64,000 bases of DNA from Pristiophorus japonicus. Its lineage: Eukaryota. The position numbers were made by a program, and so were the translations under genes. Shown here one piece after another: positions 14,607-27,959 of this stretch; the stretch's first letter is position 1, and the number at the start of each line of letters is the position of its first letter. The DNA lies in assembly GCF_044704955.1 (NCBI RefSeq), contig NC_091986.1:166408001-166472000 (forward strand), given 5' to 3'. The notes below the pieces were generated by a model. That model saw only the letters and a program-made list of their open reading frames with translations. It had not been told where the DNA came from and ran no database searches.

Positions 14607-17267
14607 CAAGAGTGAAACTGTAATAATTACAATATATACTGCAACTATAAGTCTGGTCATTGTACATTCAATTTATTTTTCATTACTTGAGTAAACAAGA
14701 TGTAGTAAAACTGGGTTTTCTTTATCTATCTATAAATAAAATAGAAAAACTAAAAATTTTCAAAATCTGAAATAAAATTAGAAAATGTTGCCCATCTTTC
14801 ATTTTGTTTAGTCATTAATAATGCGTTTGCTTTTCTTCCAGTTTCTAGTTCAAGAGTTAATACCCAAAATGTTAACCTATCTTTTCTCTTTTTCTATGTG
14901 ACTGGGTCACTTTAGTTCAGTGACAAATAAAGTACAGTAATTTAGGACAATTAAGTATGGGAGAGGGGGAAACAAACTGTTGACACAAAGTCTTTGTTCT
15001 GTAAGATGTGACTAGGAATTGCCCAGTTCCACCTAGTCTGGAAAAAGTGCAGTGGTAAGTAACAAAAATTGTTATGGGGGTAAATTACAGGTGAAATTAA
15101 TGTGCCTGAAGACAAAAGCCTTTTGAAAGACAGAATCTTCCTGGAAGAAAGTCAGATTGGTGAGATCCAAATATTGTCACCAAGTGTTCTATGGCTGGCA
15201 CATCTCAACTCGTTCTCATTGAGGAAGCTTGAGAAGTACCATGTTTCATGTGCTTGAAATACTGAAAGGCATGGATAATGTGGATGTAATGTAGAAGCAT
15301 GAAGCTAAAACAGGCTATCTTCAGCAAAACTCAAGATTAGATGGCATTTTACCCACAGAATATACTTATGTTGATTAATTAGTCTAGATAGGAATTGGAA
15401 GGATGCCTGATTATGAAATGATTGAACTCTTCATCATATACTACATGCTGAAGAAGCTGCGATCAGGTTAGGAATCTTGTACAAATTTTCTGCATCAACT
15501 CCCCGCACCCCACCCACGATTTAACCTTACTCGTCAGCTACTCTTAAGGTCACAACTGAGATCACAGTTAATTGCAACTGACTGTACTATCTTCTATGAC
15601 TCCAAGTGGATAATGCCCTGGATTATGGTAGTGGCTGCCCTATTGGCTTGTAAGTAGTGCCAGGTGGGATAAGCAACTAGATATGAATGGCCACGCATGT
15701 TATGGACAATAAGTGAAAGAAAACAAATGCACTCTCAGGGGCCGAAATTGGTCGACATATAGTTGTCCAAAAGGGTGATTTTGGTCAGAAAACAGCTACA
15801 TACCGCTCGGCGGAATATTCATCAATGACATACCGCCAAGTGGTATGCACACCGTCCGCCATGCAGGACCGCCCGCAGACCGTCCAAAAAGTGTGAGTTT
15901 CATCACATACTGCCGACATACCACCAGAGCTGCATAATGTCCGGGAAAAGGTGGTTTTACGCGATGGTAAGTGGCCAGGGATCGGCGGAGTGCACGGAGC
16001 CCCCATTTTGGAAATCGGGACCTGTCAGCTAAAGCAGCAGCTCTGTATCTCTGAGGTGAAAAGTGATTTTAGAGTGCAAAAGTATATTTACTATTACTGA
16101 GTAAATTATTAAGATAGAAAGGCATTTTATTAATATTTTTTGGATCTCAGCCTGTATTGATGACAACCTGTCTAATGAACCAGATGTGAGGAAGTTTATT
16201 AAGCAGAGGTATAAGGCTCATGGAAAAGTTAGCAGAATGATGAGAAGGTTGTGATGTATGTAGCACTCAAATCACTGATGCCACAGTCTGGTGTTGTAGT
16301 AACTGCTGTGACCTTAGTCCTTTATTGTGTAACTCCAGAGTGCCTCTCAGGTGTGGTGGGCAGCCTTTTATACTCTGTCTTGCAGGTACTTTCAGGTCTC
16401 CCACCACAGCGCCCTCTATGGCGCACCATTGTAACCCTACATTTAATGTACCTGGACAATACATAACATCTCACTCCCCCCCCCCAGTTCCAAAAGCCAT
16501 TGCCGTTAACTTCGGCCTTGTGCGTCCTGGTTGATTTGTGAGTGTGAGTCCATGGCCATCCACTTCCCTCTTCTACCCCATGTAGAGATTATGCTTGTGA
16601 TCCGGTGCAAGCATGTGGTATTAGCAGTCCTTACATGAGTGATGAAGTACAGAAACCAGGTATACATAGACAGTACATTTGTATGGTACATATAGATGCA
16701 TTGAAGAATTATAACAAAAGGTTGCAGGTACACTGAACAGTTATTTAATCCCAGCTTCACTGGGTGAGGTACGGTGGTGGCATACAGCCCCTTTTTGCCC
16801 GAGGTAATGGGCTGCGCTGAGACAGGGTATCACAACTAGTGCGTTGCCTCTGTTCTCAGAAAGTAGTTGCCTTTGTGGCTCATCTGCAGCCGCTGAACTT
16901 GCATGAATCACATAAAATCGGAAATCACATTAATCCATTAGTCATGTTAGTCACAGATCCATTAACCCTTTTACTTGTACCTCATGGTATTAACTCTTTC
17001 CATAAATCATATCCATCATTTTAAACACAGTAATCATTTCAGCATCAAAATCTTAACTCTTGTCATAAATCACGTCATCATACAAATCACATTACTCATT
17101 TAGACTCGCTCTTGCCTTACAAAAGTCTCTTTGTGGAGACCACCAACGGTGTAAGGTCCTTTTAAGACTCCCGGGTACATTTCCCTTTTAAGACGCCATC
17201 TTGTTTTTCCCACGAGGCTTCCACTGGGCGTCGCCATTTTAGGTGTTCTGTTTGTCTTTCTCTGCAG

Positions 17268-17694
17268 AACTATGCTGCCACGAGGCTTGCCAGCATCTTG
17301 AGCTCGCTGTGCCCCTTTACATTGAAACAACTCTGCCAACAGTTGCAGCCGATTACAGAAAAGGAGGTTCCAAGCCAAAAGAAACGTAACGTACCTGAAG
17401 AAGTGGTACAGAAAAGGCATAGGTTAAATGCTCATTTTGTTGAGGAGGAGCTTCCTGCAATTACTGAACCAATTGAGGATGTGAGTGGCTTGACTGCACT
17501 GCTGAACGAGTTTGAGAAGAAAAATGTGAATCCCGTTTCTGCTCTACATCTATTTTGCAAGCGCAGAGGATGTCGTCTGCATTTCCAAGAGGTTTCTGGC
17601 ATGACATGTTACTCTCTTCGTGCAGTTGTGGATGGGGTTAAAGAAGGAATAGGTGTCAGCAAAAAAAACGGCTAAGAACAATTGTGCTGAAGCC
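17268..17694 (+). pseudogene. Antisense cargo exon with ADAD1-like dsRNA-binding domain (1-nt insertion in A8 run, C-terminal helix truncated)
   Basis: NPVSALHLFCKRRG...AVVDG...GIGVSKK/TAKNNCAEA; polypyrimidine-CAG acceptor ending 17267 is in phase 0 with the open frame. Confidence 0.75.
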
Positions 17695-17890
17695 GAAACC
17701 ACGAGACGCTTGGGTGTCATTGATCACTCGTACCTCGGAGATCTGCCGGTACCTGGAGAGAACTTCTTCCAGGGCGTCCTTGATCACTCACACCTCAGAG
17801 ATCTGCCCGTAATTGGAGAGCACTTCTTCCAGGGCCTGCTCGTCTGTGTCGAGATTTAGACCTCCGATGAACAGCTTTCCTTCTCCGGAC
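17689..17890 (-). pseudogene. CIRBP/RBM3-like RRM fragment with a 60-bp internal duplication
   Basis: [35 protein letters not shown] / ALEEVLSRYRQISEVRVINDTQASRGFGF: RNP2 LFIGGL and partial RNP1 RGFGF. Confidence 0.85.
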
Positions 17891-18177
17891 CCTTTTGCGA
17901 GGTTGGTTTGCTGGGTGTTTTCCCTGCTGAACTCTAGCCTGTTGCTGCCTACCAGTTCACTCTCGACTCTCTCTTGGGATCCACCACACTTCGACCGCAC
18001 CCAGGAGCCACAACACACCGGCCCCCACACCGCCACATCCTCCGGAGCCGGCCTCTGCCCGCGGGCCGACGGTGCCTGCTGGAGCAGCCCGTCGAAGCCC
18101 TTCTCTCTCCTCCAGCTCGGTCGGCACTGCTCTTTGGGAACCCGGGGGACAGCGGTCTGTGGAGGAATGAAGTCTTC

Positions 18178-19409
18178 CTAGCTCCCATGGACCTTCCCCA
18201 TCCACCTCCTGCCAAGTAGCGTCGGCCCATCACCTGCAATGATCCACAAAGGTAAACCGTGTGTCTCACCCCGTGAGATACCTGCACATCCGCTCTGCCA
18301 AGAACAGGTATCCGTTCCTTGGTGTAGGTGCGCAGCTTTGCCGTGTCCGGGACCAGCTTGGGTCGTGCAGCTGGGTTGATCCACAGTTTATCAAAAGTTT
18401 CCTGACTCATCAGCGACTGACCCGATCCAGTGTCCACTTCCATACTCACTGGGCCACCATTAATCTTGACTTCCAAAACCACTGGGGTCGAATCGTTGGT
18501 ACAAGTATACAGTCCAAACGCCTCATCTTCTTCTACCTGCTCCTCGCTGGATGGTGGATCATCTACCATCTCCTCAGCCACATGGTGAGTTAGGTTTCTT
18601 TTGCACATACGCTGAAGGTGGCCTTTCGTGTGGCAGGTATTGCACATATACTCTGTAAACCTGCACCAGTGAGCCCCATGGCTTCCTCCGCAGCACCAGC
18701 ATGGTGCTACTCGATTAGCCCCCCTCGGCGGACTCTGAGTTCCAGGACCCCGAGTTCCGTGCTCTCTGCCCTGGGCAGAGCCACATTCTGCAGTTTTGTC
18801 CGTGACGGGCACTATCCTGTGGACAGTGCCTGCCGGGTTCGAGACTGTGTGGGTCATCTGCTTGGTGCTGCAAATCAAGGTCATAAATACCCTGCTGATG
18901 TTGATGGCTTGCTGCAGACTGACTGCAGGTTCAGTGGCTAGCAGCTTGTGAAGGAGACCCTCATGGCCAATCCCCATAATAAAAACGTCTCGCAACGCCT
19001 CGTCAAGGTGCGTGCCAAAATCACATGGCACCGCGAGTCTCCTGATGTCTGCAGCATATTTGGTGACATCCTGGTCCTCAGGTCTGCAGTGGTGGTAGAA
19101 TTTGTGCCTGGCCGTGAGGATGCTCTCCTTCGGTTTCAGTTGGTCACGAATGAGTTCAATCAGCTCCTCATATGACTTGTCCTTGGTGCTCGCAGGTGCC
19201 AGCAAATCCCTGACGAGACAGTAAACCTCATCACCACAACTGGACAGCAATATCGCCTTACGCTTCTCTCTCAGTGCGTCCGTGTCCCCCGTCAGGTCAT
19301 TTGCTATAAAGTAGTACTCGAGCCTTTCCGTAAAGGCCTCCCAATCATTATCCACTGTAAAATCCTTTAGCGAGCCCAGAGTAGCCATGGTTGCATGAAG
19401 CTCGCCCAT
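18178..19409 (-). pseudogene. Gypsy gag + aspartic protease (one frameshift near 18270)
   Basis: DWEAFTERLEYYF, two CCHC knuckles (CWCCGGSHGAHWC, CNTCHTKGHLQRMC), VDTGS, and LLGRRW in the shifted frame. Confidence 0.92.
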
Positions 19410-19649
19410 GTCCTCGTCGCCAATGTAATGTATGTAGCACTAAGATCACTGACTCCACACAGTCTGGTGTTGTAGTAACTGCTGTGACCTTAGTCCTTTA
19501 TTGTGTAACTCCAGAGTGCCTCTCAGGTGTGGTGGGCAGCCTTTTATACTCTGTCTTGCAGGTACTTTCAGGTCTCCCACCACAACGCCCTCTGTGGCGC
19601 ACCATTGTAACCATACATTTAATGTACCTGGACAATACATAACAAAGGT

Positions 19650-20610
19650 CTTACCGCAAAGGATCTTGAGGGAGAAGTGTTCATACTTGGACCTGATCGA
19701 TCGACAGTGTGTCCAAAGGCTGCGCTTCCGAAAAGAGATCATCACACAGATTTGCCAGCTCATTAAGGCAGACCTGCAGCCCGATAGCACCAATATTACT
19801 GCACTCTGTTGAGATGAAGGTGACTGGCACTTTCCTTTTATGCATGTGGGTCTTTTCAATCATCAGCTGGGGACATATGCGCTATTTCGCAGTACGCTAC
19901 TCGTCGGTGCATTCGACAGGTAACCGAAGCACTGTATGACGATGGATGGAATTTATAAACTTCCCAATGACGAGGGAGGCTCAGAGTGACAGGGCTTTGG
20001 GATTTGCACGCATTGCTGGCTTCCCTAAGGTGCAGGGTGCTATTGACTGTACCCATATTGCCCTGCAAGCACCATTACAGGAGGCGAGCACCATTACAGG
20101 AGGCGGAGGTGTACCGAAATCGTAAGGGATTTCACTCCCTCAACATGCAGCTGGTATGCGACCATACACAGCGCATAATGGCAGTGAATGTCAACTTTCC
20201 AGGGAGCATCCATGATGCGCATATCTTACAGGAGAGTACTGTGTCTGACCTGTTGAAGTCTGCGCCACAAGGTAAATTCTGGATGCTGGCCGACAAAGGG
20301 TATAGCCTCGCTACCTGGCTTTTGCCCCCCCTAAGGAACCCTCACACAGAACCCGAGCAACGATACAATAAAAGCTATATAGCCACACATAACATAATTG
20401 AAGACAATTGGAGTGCTGAAGCAGTGCTTTCGGTGCTTGGACCACTTGGGAGGCAGGCTGCAATACTACCCTGAGCAGTTGCTAAGTTCACAATGATATG
20501 CTGCATGTTGCATAATTTAGCAATCATGTGGGGACAGGAATTGCCACAGGGAACTGAAGGACCATCTGAGGAGAGTGCAGGAGATGGAGGAGGAAGAAGA
20601 CAATGAGGGG
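19650..20610 (+). pseudogene. Harbinger DDE transposase, frameshifted; 5' part lies before 16250
   Basis: QRLRFRKEII, YRNRKGFHSLNMQLVCD, PGSIHDAHIL, LADKGY. Confidence 0.88.
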
Positions 20611-20645
20611 CAGGAGGATGACGAGGAGCTTGCAGATGAACCCAT

Positions 20646-21220
20646 ATCATCATCATAGGCAGTCCCTCGAAATGAGGATGACTTGCTTCCACACCAAAAA
20701 ATAGGATGCGTTCACAGGTGTTTCGAATGAAGAACCTGAACTACATCCTCAAGGGTGCAAGATAACTATGCGTGGATTTTTTTAACGTGTGGTGGTCGTT
20801 GCACTCCAACCACCACACAAGTTTGACAGAGCTAGGTCTTGGTCCAGTGGCAAGGATTACCCAAGACAACTGGAGACCTGCTCTGCTGCACAGACCTAGT
20901 GCGCACACAAATCGGTGTGGGCTGGCTCGTGCTGCCCTCGGGCCCCTGGCCCCGAACTCACGCCTTCCCTGGGCCCCGATCACATCCTTCCAGTCTCTCA
21001 CAGCTTCTTCGCCCCAATCTCACCGCTCCTGCTGCATCTGCCCACGCTCCAATCACTGATCTGGACCTTGCTGACGTCACTCTTCGCTGCCATTGCCCTC
21101 CTGCACCAGCTCGCGCTGTACCTTGTAGTGGTATGCCTCCACGCAGTCCAGGTTCCGCACACCACTTCTTTTATGGCCTCGACCTGCCGCTGATGGTTTC
21201 TCGCAGGTCAGGGCCTCCAT
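20646..21220 (-). mobile_element. Short RTE-tailed non-autonomous retroelement
   Basis: 3' end GGAAGCAAGTCATCCTC..GAGGGACTGCCTATGATGATG shared with the RTE LINEs at 31226 and 61629; body shared with copies at 39026 and 60125. Confidence 0.8.
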
Positions 21221-21842
21221 AGCACCACCCCCAACACCACAGCAGAGGGCACGTGGAGTGTGTGCCACTGCAAAATTCTTAAGTCAGCAGTTCATTACTG
21301 AACGCTTTGCTTGAATGTGGAGCTGCTGCATTTTGGGACCCTCATGACTGTTACCCCAAAAGTTTGACACTGTACAAGAGTGGTTAAATTCAATTCAAAC
21401 ATTTATCTAAAAATTTTAAAAAATACAATTTCCAAACTTTGTAAAAATTAACAGCTGTTTTTACAACTTTAATAAAAAATGTAACAAAACTTACAAAACT
21501 TTAACAAACATTTTATAACTTTAATAACAAACCCTTTACTTTCCCCACCCACGCCCTCTGTCCCTTCCGCGGCCGCGTGATACACCACCCTTGGAACTAT
21601 TCTCCCCTTTCTTATTGCCGTCCTTCCCTTTCACGATGCCCGTGGGCATGGACATCCCCAGGTATATACCAAGCCAGCGTCCAGCACCGCACCCCAAGTG
21701 CCATTGCTGTCGTTTGGGGGGGGGGGGGGCGGGAGAGTGAGACATTGCAGGCGCAATAACTGGTGCCTCAGGAGAAGCTCGTGAGGATGGTGAGGCTTCA
21801 GAGCTGGGAGATGATGTCAGCTCTCCATCCTCAGATGCCGTC

Positions 21843-24800
21843 TGTTGTGTATCTGTAAAGCATGCACTCCCATGTTCCGCCACCAGGGAGCTCATCCCCT
21901 GAAGTCCCAAGAGATCCCAGCATCTTCTGGCTCCGGTGAAACCCACAGATAAGTCGTATGAGGAGCTGTGTACACTGGTTCGGGAGCATCTTAATCCGAG
22001 GGAGAGCGTGCTGATGGCGATGTATCGGTTCTACACGTGCCAGCAATCTGAAGATCAGGAAATGGCGAGCTACGTCGCCGAGCTAAGGCGACTTGCAGGA
22101 CAATGTGAGTTTGATGGCTACCTGGAGCAGATGCTCAGAGACTTTTTTGTACTGGGCATTGGCCACGAGACCATCCTACGAAAACTTTTGACTGTGGAGA
22201 CACCGACCCTCAGTAAGGCCATTGCGATAACACAGGTGAATATGTCCACCAGTGATAACATCAAACAAATCTCTCAGCATTACAAGTGCTAGCAATGTTC
22301 ATAAATTAACTGGAATTGTGTTTGTGAGCCGAAATGTACAGGGCAGAAACCACGAGTCTGCAACTGCCAGCAGGCCTCAGGTGACCCAGATGACTGAGTC
22401 CGCAACAAAGGATGAATGCAAGGCAGTTCACACCTTGTTGGCGTTGTGGAGGCTTCCATTCAGCCGATTCATGCTGCTTCAAAGGGTATGTTTGCAAGAG
22501 CTGTGAAACAATGGGGCACCTCCAACGAGCTTGCAAACGAGCTGCAAGATCTGCAAAACCTGCTAACCACCACGTGGCAGAGGAAGATCGGTCCATGGTG
22601 GATCAAAGCAATTTCGAGCCTCAGAGAGGAGGCAGATGCTGAAGTACATGGGGTGCACACTTTTTCGACGAAATGTCCACCTATAATGCTAAATGTAAAA
22701 TTGAATGGCTTATCTGTACCCATGGAACTGGACACTGGCGCTAGCCAATCCATCACGAGTAAAAAGATGTTTGAGAGACTGTGGTGCAACAAGGCATTCA
22801 GACCAGCCCTGAGCCCCATCCACACGAAACTGAGAACGTACACCAAAGAGCTTATCACGGTCCTGGGCAGCGCCATGGTCAAGGTCACCTACACGTGCAC
22901 GTGCACGAACTGCCACTCTGGATTGTCCTGGGAGATGGCCCCACACTGCTTGGAAGGAGCTGGCTGGGCAAAATCCACTGGAACTGGGATGACATCCGAG
23001 CTCTATCACATGTCGATGAGGCCTCATGTACCCAGGTTCTTCACAAATTTCCTTCCGTTTTTGAGCCAGGCATTGGAAACTTTTCCGGGGCGAAGGTGCG
23101 GATCCAATTGGTCCCAGAGGCATGACCCATTCACCTCAAAGCGCGAGCGGTACCTCACATGATAAGGGAGAGAGTGGAAATCGAGCTGGACAGGCTGCAA
23201 CGCGAGGGCATCATCTCCCCAGTGGAATTCAGCCAGTGGGCCAGCCCGATTGTTCCAGTACTCAAAAGTGATGGCACGGTCAGGATTTGCGGCGATTATA
23301 AAGTAGCTATTAATCGTTTATCGCTACAGGACCAATACCTGCTACCTAAGGCAGACGACCTATTTGCGACGCTTGCAGGAGGCAAGACATTCACCAAGCT
23401 CGACCTGACTTCGGCCTACATGACGCAGGAGCTGGAGGAGTCTTCGAAGGGCCTCATCTGCATCAACACGCACAAGGGACTGTTCATCTACAACAGATGC
23501 CCATTTGGAATTCGGTCGGTTGCAGCGCTCTTCCAGAGAAACATGGAGAACCTACTCAAGTCGATACCACACACAGTGGTCTTTCTGGACGACATATTGG
23601 TCACGGGTCGGGCCCTACACGTGTAATTGCGCAAAGGTGAGAACTGGGTATGGGGAAAAAAAACAAGTAATTGCTTTTGAGAAAGCTAGAAATATTTTAT
23701 GCTCCAACAAGTTGCTTGTATTGAATAAGCCGTGTAAAAGACATGTGCTAGCATGTGACGCGTCGCCGTACGGAGTCGGGTGTGTATTACAAGCTAACAT
23801 TGCGGGGAAGTTGCAACCTGTCGCCTATGCTTCCAGGAGCTTGTCTAAGGCCGAGAGGGCCTACAGCATGATTGAGAAAGAGGCATTAGCGTGTGTGTTC
23901 GGTGTAAATAAAATGCATCAGTGCCTGTTTGGCCTCAAATTTGAGCTGGAAACCGATCACAAGCCCCTCACATCCCTGTTCGCTGAAAACAAGGGGATAA
24001 ATACTAATGCCTCAGCCCGCATACAAAGGTGGGCACTCGCGCTATCAGCTTTTAGCTATAATCATCCTCCACAGGCACCGAGAACTGTGCGGATGCTCTC
24101 AGTCGGCCACCATTGCCCACCACGGGGGTGGAAATGGCGCAGCCTGCAAACTTGTTGATGGTGGCACAGCCCGCAGACTTGTTGATGATCATGGAAGCGT
24201 TTGAAAATGATAAATCACCTGTCACGGCCCATCAGATTAGGACTTTGACCAGCCAAAATCCTCTGCTGTCCCTAATAAAAAAACTGTTCACTGCATGGGA
24301 ACTGGGCCAGCATCCCTGTTGAAATGCAAGAGCTAATCAAGCCATTCCAGCGGTGAAAGGACGAGCTGTCCATTCAGTCAGACTGCCTGTTGTGGGGTAA
24401 TCACGTAGTGCTACCAAAAAAGGGCAGGGAGACGTTCATCTCGGATCTCCACAGCACACACCCGGGTATAGTAATGATGAAAGCGATAGCCAGATCCCAC
24501 GTGTGGTGGCCCGGTATCGACTCTGACTTAGAGTCCTGTGTACGGCAATGCAGCATATGTGCTCAGTTGAGCAACGCGCCCAGAGAGGCACCACTAAGTT
24601 TGTGGTCCTGGCCCTCCAGACCATGGTCGAGGATCCATGTCGACTATGCGGGCCTGTTTCTCGGTAAAATGTTCCTGGTGGTGGTGGATGCTTTTTCAAA
24701 ATGGATTGAACGTGAAATAATGTCGGGAAGCACCGCCACCGCCACCATTGAAAGCCTGGGGGCCATGTTTGCCACCCACGGCCTGCCTGACATACTGATC

Positions 24801-25816
24801 AGTGACAACGGGCCATGTTTCACCAGTGCCGAATTTAAAGAATTCATGACCTGCAATGGGATCAAACATGTCACCTCGGCCCCGTTTAAACCAGCCTCCA
24901 ATGGGCAGGCAGAGCGGGCAGTACAAACCATCAAACAGAGCCTTAAACGAGTCACAGAAGGCTCACTCCAAACCCGCCTATCCCGAGTACTGCTCAGCTA
25001 CCGCACAATACCCCACTCGCTCACAGGGGTGCCCCCGGCTGAGCTACTCATGAAAAGGACACTTAAAACCAGACTCTCGCTGGTTCACCCCAACCTGTAT
25101 GATCAGGTAGAGAGCAGGCGGCAGCAACAAAATGTAAATGATGGTCGCGCCACTGTGTCACGGGAAATTGATCTGAATGATCCTGTGTATGTGCTAAACT
25201 ATGGACATGGTCCCAAGTGGATCGCGGGCACGGTGATAGCTAAAGAAGGGAATAAGGTGTTTGTAGTCAAACTAGACAATGGAAAAATTTGCAGAAAGCG
25301 CCTGAACCAAACGAGGCTGCGGTTTAGACTGCCCTGAACAACCCACAGCAGACACCACCTTTTTCGAGCCCACACCACACACCCAAAGAATCAACGACAC
25401 CACGTCGGACCAGGAAATCAAACCCATCCCGCCCAACAGCCCAGCAAGGCCAGGCTCACCTAGCAGCCCTGCAGGGCCAACAACATGCCAGTCCAGTGAG
25501 GGCACAGCCAACAGACCAGAACCGACATTTGTACCGAGGCGGTCCACTAGGGAAAGAAAGGCTCTCAAATGCCTCACCTTGTAAATAGTTTTCACTTTGA
25601 CTTTGCAAGGGGAGTGCTGTTGTGTATCATTCCCATGTTCCGCCACCAGGGAGCTCATCCCCTGAAGTCCCAAGGGATCCCAGCATCCCTTGGGAGCACT
25701 GTATATAAGTCGGCCCCTAAGGCCTGTTCCTCACTCTGGAGTGTCTTATTAAAGACTGCGGTCACTGTTACTTTAACCTCCCTGTGTGCAGCCTCATCTG
25801 TGTTAGGAACACAATA
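21843..25816 (+). mobile_element. Gypsy LTR retrotransposon (gag-PR-RT-RH-IN), degenerate
   Basis: TSD CCGTC; 5' LTR truncated near 21924 and joined to mid-gag; 3' LTR 25618-25816 after a PPT; LDTGA, RICGDYK, FLDD, CDAS/IEKEALA/TDHKPL, integrase HHCC + HVDYAG/SDNG/NGQAERAV. Confidence 0.93.
24390..25337 (+). CDS. Gypsy integrase domain (open 315-aa stretch of broken pol)
   Basis: HPGIVMMKAIARSHVWWPG, IHVDYAG, ISDNGPCF, SNGQAERAV. Confidence 0.88.
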   Translation: MWGNHVVLPKKGRETFISDLHSTHPGIVMMKAIARSHVWWPGIDSDLESCVRQCSICAQLSNAPREAPLSLWSWPSRPWSRIHVDYAGLFLGKMFLVVVDAFSKWIEREIMSGSTATATIESLGAMFATHGLPDILISDNGPCFTSAEFKEFMTCNGIKHVTSAPFKPASNGQAERAVQTIKQSLKRVTEGSLQTRLSRVLLSYRTIPHSLTGVPPAELLMKRTLKTRLSLVHPNLYDQVESRRQQQNVNDGRATVSREIDLNDPVYVLNYGHGPKWIAGTVIAKEGNKVFVVKLDNGKICRKRLNQTRLRFRLP

Positions 25817-27959
25817 CCGTCGACCTGACTACTATGGCACATGGGGGTTCCATGCCATGTTCCGATCCTGTCGATTGCTGCATGGCAACTCTTGACCTAT
25901 GCCGACGCTGGCCTGTGACAGACGCACCATGTCCTGGTACAGCAATCGACCTTTCCTCCACCAACCTCCGTCACTGCGGCAAAGGCGCTGCAACACTAGG
26001 GGTGCCTTGCTGCGCATGGCTTGGTCCGGCAGATTCAGAGGACCCATGGGGGAATCCCATGAATATAGACTCGGTGGTGGTGGAGGATGTTCCAGCTGTC
26101 CCACATGGAGCTGGTGCTTCCTCCTCCGTCTCCAACACTAGCTCCACCTCCACTGGCTGCTGGAGAGGGCTGGGTGACGCCAGAGGTGGAGGCAGTGGAT
26201 CTGTCGTCGGTGTCACTGTGGTCTGAATCATTGGCGTCTGGAAGTACAAAATATTTCAAAAAGCTTGGCAGCAGGGAAGGGGTGAGGGTTACATGAGCAC
26301 ATAGTACAGTGACTTATCGCAGTTTTACTTAAATATCCACCACTGCTGCAGTACTGCATTACATATCGCATACAGAATACATATATGAATTGCGTTACAT
26401 GCCCCCAACATTCCAGTACATCACATGAGGCTAACATTACAGTGCAATAAACTTACATTACATTACATCAGGCCAACATTACAGTGACATGATAGGACCG
26501 CAACACAGACTGCATTTTATTTAACTTACCATCTTGTGTGAGTGGGTGAGCTTCAATGCCACTGGTGACACGGTTGCTATCCCCAACCAGGGACAGGGCA
26601 CGGATCTTGGTATCTGTAAGTGGCTCCTGGATTGTGGGGCTGCCCCCCGGTGTGACGCTGAGAGCTGCTATTGCAGATGTCTTCCTCTGCAGAACGGGAA
26701 GTAAATTAAAAATATAAATAAATCTTCAATCCATTTAACATGGCACAGACAGACACACATACACACACACAAAGCACTGCGTTGATCCTCGTCTTTGCCT
26801 GAAAAGCATGAATACATCGCCGTAACCTTAAGATAAATATCACCCACTAAACCTACATTTACATGGTATATAACGCATGGCGGGGAGGGCGGGGCATAAA
26901 TAAAATCATTACTTACTCTTGCAACCCTCACCAGGTCGTTCCACCTCTTACGGCACCTTTCCCCAGTGTGTACCATCGTACTTTTCGTGGACACAGCCTC
27001 CCCGATCTCATCCCAAATTCGGTTGTACTCCTTTGGGAGGGGCTTTCCACTACCACCCTTGGTGAGGTCAGAGTACCTCTCTGTGATGTGCTCCAGAAGG
27101 GCAGGTAACTCCGTTTCATCGAAGGCGAGCGCCCTCAACCTCCCCTCCTTCTCGATATTCCTGTGCTTGGCGGTTTTCTTTAACATTTGCATCATTTTTT
27201 TCTGGATATTAATTTTCCCTTCTTAAATATCTGTTCTTGTGTTGAAATTGAATAATTATTAGTTGCTACCAATTTTTTACCAATGTGTTATTTATTTTTA
27301 AACTCACTGGCCTTCGACTACCTTGCTGTTCCTTCTCACTCTCTCTCTCTCTCCTCAACTCACTGCACATGCATGGGTGACCCCTGACCCCCGAAATCAT
27401 GGGTAAAACATTTGTGAAAAAAAATCGGGGAAAAAAAATTTGCACATGCGCAGTTCCGTGCCACACCGCCCATCAAACAAAGAGTTGATCTTGGTCGACT
27501 ACTAAGATGCATACCATCCGATGCAGACCACTGACACACCGCCGAAAATGTTTTCACCAATTTAACCTTCTTCAGTCTCGGCAGTATGAAACGACATATT
27601 ACCGAGAAATGGGCGGATCATCGGTATCAACCAATTTCGGCCCCTCTGTATTTTCAGCAGGAGAAAATGTTCCAGACTTGGGGGCCCCTTTCCTGCAAAG
27701 TCACATATAATGAGACTAGCTACATCAGACCTCCCAGCTTCTTTCTTCGGACACTGAGAGGATTTGAAAGTTTATTTTACATCAGGAAGTGTTATCTTTG
27801 CAATTCTTCCTCCTCTCACATAGAGTTGGCAATCGGTTCTGTATCCCCTAAGGATTGGTCTTGCTATGCTTTTTGGGAAATGACTGTTATCTTTTTTCTT
27901 CCCAGTGAACCTCAGAAAGCCTAATGTTATTTGTCACCCCATTATAGGAAGGAAATGAA

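Follow-up and report, generated by a model that had tools for sequence, protein, structure and literature searches.

Pseudogenes derived from circular RNAs (circRNAs) are already known. For instance, 33 high-confidence circRFWD2 pseudogenes have been described in mouse beside MMERVK10C-int, and the mechanism of their formation was called mysterious (Dong et al. 2016, PMC4897178). In Drosophila, LTR-mediated retroposition proceeds by template switching at microsimilarities, as set out in the available text of Tan et al. (2016, PMC5131818), in whose main text the word "circular" does not appear. The accessible part of PMC10437952 describes vertebrate ADAD1 and ADAD2 as having a single dsRBD and an A_deamin domain, and zebrafish adad1 as germline-specific. 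A search of the literature, mostly of journals without subscription, found precedent in mouse/human and reviews only, and no prior report of an ADAD-derived family like the one presented here or of a resolved capture of one lap of a circle. What is new here is an unusually complete record of such a capture.

The window, which is the whole stretch of 64,000 nucleotides that was analysed, contains nested elements at positions 16170-27222, where a Harbinger-type transposase gene is split by an LTR element. Further along are a Gypsy-type element that is full but broken (21865-25815) and, at 26671-27222, a Myb/SANT gene. The left flank of the insert, taken at first for part of an integrase, did not prove to be so. 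Since the LTR element interrupts the transposase gene, the term antisense refers here to the element, and in this sense the antisense location within a mobile element that a preliminary description of this DNA had proposed is correct. The element and its parts are as follows.

16245..16249, no strand: left copy of the 5-bp TSD (the same 5 bases are at 19645-19649).
16250..19644, minus strand: non-autonomous LTR element of about 3.4 kb (extent from the LTR coordinates).
16250..16468, minus strand: 3' LTR, 219 bp (8 differences from the 5' LTR in 219 aligned bases).
About 16469-16485, minus strand: polypurine tract, before the 3' LTR in element sense.
16469..17312, minus strand: the element's own 3' internal region, found in empty-site and CIRBP-less copies.
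17251-17267: acceptor-like motif, on the opposite strand of the element's 3' internal region.
17684..17968, minus strand: earlier capture of the 5' end of an intronless CIRBP-like mRNA, in sense (79 nt of leader and about 52 codons).
17712-17831: 60-bp tandem duplication inside the CIRBP-like capture of the window copy.
17949..19439, minus strand: remnant of gag (CCHC knuckle) and aspartyl protease.
About 19413-19423, minus strand: primer-binding-site-like word, after the 5' LTR in element sense.
19424..19644, minus strand: 5' LTR, 221 bp.
19645..19649, no strand: right copy of the TSD.

The TG...CA LTRs, the TSD, the gag with its CCHC knuckle and the protease are Ty3/Gypsy features, and the gag is 46% identical to that of the element at 21865-25815, which has the order PR-RT-RH-IN. 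Neither RT, RNase H nor integrase was found in the window element, which holds only the gag/protease remnant. It is classed as a non-autonomous Ty3/Gypsy element and, its own pol being absent, this assignment leans on the relative at 21865-25815.

The segment 17317-17691 is 95.7% identical to three exons (A, B and C) of a host ADAD-family gene on contig C28. This identity bears out the ADAD-family origin given in the preliminary description, and the donor locus for which it had proposed a search is thereby located. The insert and its joints are arranged as follows.

17308..17312, no strand: duplicated 5-nt target word at the exit joint, with a second copy at 17683-17687 (by comparison with empty-site copies).
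17313..17316, no strand: 4 bases absent from the host circle and from empty and CIRBP-less copies, presumably untemplated.
17317..17364, plus strand: 3' part of host exon B, the C-terminal half of dsRBD helix 2 (C28:21192999-21193046).
17365..17430, plus strand: whole host exon C (C28:21221615-21221680).
17430..17431, plus strand: back-splice-type joint of the donor end of exon C with the first base of the upstream exon A.
17431..17593, plus strand: host exon A (C28:21177705-21177878; the window copy lacks 15 nt across A|B).
17594..17691, plus strand: 5' part of host exon B (C28:21192891-21192997; the window copy lacks 6 nt).
17683..17691, minus strand: entry point, a 9-nt word that exon B, read in antisense, has in common with the empty-site parent.

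The order in the element (end of B, C, A, start of B) is thus permuted. The host exons, which have canonical AG/GT boundaries and are all in phase 1, measure 174 nt (A), 156 nt (B; 21192891-21193046) and 66 nt (C), and 395 of their 396 nt are present in the element insert, at positions 283-677 of the doubled lap of the circle. Compared with 200 kb of the C28 locus, the insert splits into four pieces with one host match each, and neither intron nor other sequence from outside the exons was found in it; poly(A) is also absent. In all of 30 loci (L001-L030), C|A follows the host boundaries without a gap; B|C is ungapped in 29 and A|B in 13, the remainder, window copy included, carrying a later deletion at A|B. 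An exact 18-mer across C|A occurs at no fewer than 62 dispersed places (control 0), which include a few duplicated loci, and it is absent from C28 itself. In addition, a contig of the X1 run places a single letter between the two ends of the insert, which is the arrangement of an intact host exon B.

A protein search of the genome led to two split exons on C28, about 70-80 kb upstream of an A_deamin gene. The order A-B-C is colinear in the shark orthologue P0004, and database orthologues support both the gene and the order. Two single-dsRBD deaminase-domain genes exist in this genome, at C28:21.17-21.27 Mb and C2:317.87-317.95 Mb. The one on C2 bears the motif that the preliminary description gave for ADAD1. 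Comparison of the insert with seven C2 stretches gave no significant DNA match. The donor is the C28 paralogue and not the C2 gene, and the apparent divergence therefore lies between host paralogues. The preliminary description had given ADAD1 as the closest match, which is right for the family but not for the gene, and had read the divergence as long evolution outside the host, which is contradicted by a recent copy about 94-96% identical to the C28 exons. Relatives of the C28 gene in shark and skate are labelled ADAD1 or ADAD1-like by their sources, and the atlas scores for naming it ADAD1 or ADAD2 are tied (0.96 vs 0.95). Going by the source labels and the motif given for ADAD1, the donor could be ADAD2 or yet another paralogue. 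One of the donor introns contains a solo LTR (C28:21220542-21220760) that is 85% identical to the LTR of the element family, 855 bp upstream of exon C and antisense to the gene.

The C|A back-splice joint and the presence of 395 of the 396 nt point, taken together, to one lap of a circle. Judged from sequence, the insert probably represents a circRNA, its circle deduced from the DNA copies, that entered an LTR element by reverse transcription and was afterwards multiplied with it as neutral cargo. The lap is flanked by both LTRs and a TSD and has been re-amplified as part of a non-autonomous element.

The same joint could have been produced on a linear mRNA containing exon C, if a reverse transcriptase that had reached the start of exon A had switched to the C|D joint by way of a shared 5-nt word and had then run to the cut end at the entry site. 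Exons A and D share their first 4 bases, so that 5 nt of microhomology link C|A to the regular C|D joint; exon C is present in 2 of 6 proteins examined and in 2 of 4 H. perlo isoforms; the family switches templates often (the CIRBP capture, the recombinant L106); and RT is known to be able to create non-colinear joints, as PMC4897178 cautions. However, the 876-nt mRNA contains 197 shared words of 5 nt or more across the opening, 127 of which would give inserts of up to 500 nt, and only one pair corresponds to both splice sites. A third template switch would also be required, and we regard this explanation as unlikely. A linear RNA with repeated exons, arising from an ancestral tandem duplication of A-C or from trans-splicing and entered and left at the same exon B word, would yield the same exon order and a one-unit insert. 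It is less probable still, since the assembly has one copy of each exon, no repeat appears in P0003-P0005 or P0028-P0030, and a continuous template leaves the missing base and the 4 foreign exit bases unexplained.

With a circRNA as template, the joints can be followed base by base. The 9-nt entry word is exact in 14 of 15 empty copies, and the chance of such a match at a random joint is about 3e-5; shared words between the circle and the 3.1-kb parent are in themselves not rare (8-17 overlapping words). At the exit, the copy halts one base short of the 9-nt word, 4 bases follow, and the element resumes 5 bases back. Relative to the empty-site copies no element DNA was lost at the insert, and there is a 5-nt duplication instead. 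A CIRBP-less parent was considered as the source of the 4 exit bases and was rejected, as they are missing in 3 of 3 such copies. The entry site shows no unusual unpairedness in the folded circle (60th percentile), and between the introns flanking the circle a single weak match of inverted repeats was detected (62 bp, 76%).

Retroviral-type reverse transcriptases have RNase H and add untemplated bases. On balance we favour a mechanism in which a DNA end of the retrotransposon anneals to a host circRNA over a short homologous stretch and is extended by exactly one lap. The 3' end of element-sense DNA would pair with the circle through the 9-nt match, and the reverse transcriptase would copy one round and stop one base before its own priming site. 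After the addition of 4 untemplated bases, the new strand would rejoin the element five bases back, and the one-lap insert, antisense and of unit length, would then be multiplied by the element. A helper enzyme of Gypsy type, acting in the particle while the second strand is made, seems slightly preferable to target-primed copying, driven by a LINE or by repair, into a copy in the genome. In the particle version RNase H would cleave the template where the primer sits, and this cutting, together with the repeated captures at the same spot, makes the second-strand route tenable; the duplication and the absence of loss do the same for target-primed copying. An ordinary first-strand switch is excluded for the ADAD lap because of its antisense orientation, whereas it fits the CIRBP-like piece.

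The CIRBP-like capture adjoins the ADAD insert and corresponds to half an RRM, with CIRBP as best match. Its donor is located at C7:219500641-219501075 and is 92% identical to the parent L099. A cluster of five CIRBP-like genes whose coding regions lack introns (L101-L105) occupies C7:219414960-219764735, one of them being the donor of the RRM half in the element. A pattern search for an intron-bearing CIRBP gene gave no match, because the donors are intronless in their coding part. The CIRBP-like piece replaces a CT/GA tract of the element of about 110 nt. The capture-free copies L115, L126 and L129 have a (CT)n(GA)n tract where later copies have this piece, self-complementary in two of the three, and the tract is a possible pause site for the reverse transcriptase. 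The RRM half was present in all 150 candidates scored out of 360 genome-wide, so that the branch with ADAD is smaller than the family that bears CIRBP. In the recombinant L106 (C2:4298527-4301838), the family has made a second capture of CIRBP type: another CIRBP-like paralogue is present there with its complete coding region and a portion of its 3' UTR, followed by 97 nt of ADAD exon B in antisense.

A DNA search gave 40 scored candidates, all of them 86-100% identical. The C|A 18-mer is exact in 36 of 55 known insert copies, which scales to about 95 copies in total. Near-identical copies about 0.6-0.9 Mb apart at C8:144.2-147.1 Mb and on C1231 (L019, L020, L022, L023, L024 and L153) are more suggestive of large segmental duplications in tandem than of independent insertions. 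A stand-alone retrocopy of the circle outside the element was not found, the 8 odd loci opened all lying within the element. In a sample of 76 typed copies, biased by the queries and with two loci without flank left out and three typed by hand, 3 carry neither capture, 15 the CIRBP-like piece only, 35 the lap, 22 a deleted lap, and 1 is the recombinant. This multi-copy family, the permuted exon order and the adjoining CIRBP-like capture were not part of the preliminary description.

Of 20 loci fetched, 9 have an empty site. A tree built on the 3' flank places 11 of 15 empty copies with the 3 capture-free copies (99/86; the bootstrap had not settled and support values are rough), and a host-like 6-nt CIRBP stretch is kept by 8 empty copies vs none of 52 scorable insert copies. 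The empty state is therefore ancestral. The other 4 empty copies nest among insert copies in this tree and may represent later precise losses. The LTR pairs of 13 copies, each with its own TSDs, are 2.7-8.2% apart.

At this position a dsRBD exon with its own splice acceptor had been proposed. A pyrimidine/CAG motif does end at 17267, 135 codons without a stop follow from 17268 and include the motifs quoted for them, and the break of the frame at the A-run 17661-17668, which lies in the window copy of exon B, was seen as well. The frame is open because three phase-1 exons with lengths that are multiples of 3 give a lap without a stop in the host frame. The supposed acceptor is separated by 49 nt from the captured DNA, and 14 of 15 empty copies and 3 of 3 capture-free ones have it, so that it is older than the insert. 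The dsRBD itself is recognised in the sister copy L018 (27.8 bits with Pfam dsrm, curated cut-off 23 bits) but not in the window peptide, which has no dsrm match, and a protein search at near length gave no match. The alpha-beta-beta-beta-alpha order is incomplete: helix 2 is cut at the opening, and its C-terminal half (TLKQLRQQL in the host), expected behind KKxAK, stands at the front of the insert and precedes helix 1. A fold model of L018 built with 7 sequences had a low confidence (pLDDT 39) and no second helix.

The frame was not found to be conserved among copies either. Frameshifts affect 35 of 38 copies and stops 17, and only 3 are open through the insert; synonymous changes make up 72 of 252 distinct changes vs 67.4 expected (ratio 0.91, p=0.52). 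The insert frame decays neutrally, without purifying selection, and there is no sign that it makes a working dsRBD protein. A functional spliced antisense dsRBD exon that has evolved for long within the element, for instance as a dsRNA decoy, is hardly credible, for although it would account for the open codons behind the acceptor-like motif, the 3 open copies and the score of L018, it is at odds with an acceptor older than the insert, with neutral substitutions, frameshifts and stops, with a capture that cuts helix 2, with the loss of part of the insert in 22 of 76 typed copies, and with the poor fold model.

No RNA is listed as a holder of the insert. What bears on transcription comes from X1, which is one run available as contigs only, its kind and library not being on record, and in which the alleles of host and element cannot be assigned in phase on the two sides of C|A. 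Host and element differ in a nearly fixed manner at C28:21193009, 21193045, 21221623, 21177776, 21177835 and 21192974. Exon C is covered in X1 only at a depth of about 10, by two element-type records, six further pieces not being shown; the missing cover by host alleles carries no weight here. These two records reach 19 letters past C|A, 31 being needed to count as bridging. A 94-nt contig is identical to the window copy and to no other of the 76 copies, a hint of low-level transcription or of DNA carry-over. Element-sense transcripts would contain up to 395 nt antisense to a probably germline ADAD mRNA, with a median of 71 perfect 26-mers out of 305 per full copy. It is improbable, though conceivable, that the element family feeds small RNAs against a host germline RNA regulator.

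A single genome contains all stages: copies without capture, with the CIRBP-like capture, with the full lap and with a deleted lap, and the recombinant. They lead to concrete predictions, namely short-homology priming, unit length, antisense orientation, an untemplated tail and a short duplication, which are open to checking both in vitro and on the RFWD2 copies of mouse; the mechanism of circRNA-derived pseudogenes was left open by the paper that named them (PMC4897178). Since zebrafish adad1 is germline-specific in the accessible part of PMC10437952, germline expression is inferred for the C28 gene and, if the proposed origin is true, a germline circRNA of this ADAD gene once existed. The ADAD insert is no new protein. 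The 60-95 or so genomic copies of the back-splice joint will lead to false circRNA calls in RNA-seq of the animal. The phenomenon would also extend beyond the mammalian cases found in the literature search.

With one dsrm and one A_deamin domain, the C28 donor is like vertebrate ADAD1 and ADAD2, but the second such gene on C2 sets it apart from a simple match to either. As far as the available text of PMC5131818 goes, the element resembles the Drosophila cases in the position of partial host RNA between two LTRs, in joints with short similarity and some de novo bases, in chimeras of several genes and in re-amplification as a non-autonomous element. The CIRBP-like piece fits this retroposition well, and the joints of the ADAD lap (9 nt of microsimilarity at the entry; 4 foreign and 5 shared bases at the exit) are also of the kind described there. 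However, the captures in that text replace element sequence, whereas the ADAD lap interrupts a continuous element; its antisense orientation and the absence of element loss make the standard first-strand switch ill-fitting for it.

The ADAD insert shares with circRFWD2 (PMC4897178) a non-colinear exon joint at the back-splice, a content of circle exons only, the absence of poly(A), tens of copies and an LTR context. Unlike circRFWD2, it is found inside a two-LTR element with empty-site parents, and both joints are thereby resolved. They show one full lap less one base, antisense orientation, a 9-nt entry match, untemplated bases and a 5-nt duplication. The circle of circRFWD2 is known from RNA-seq, whereas that of ADAD is deduced from genomic joints, and in place of a mouse ERV-K the carrier is here a Gypsy-type element in a genome of cartilaginous-fish type.
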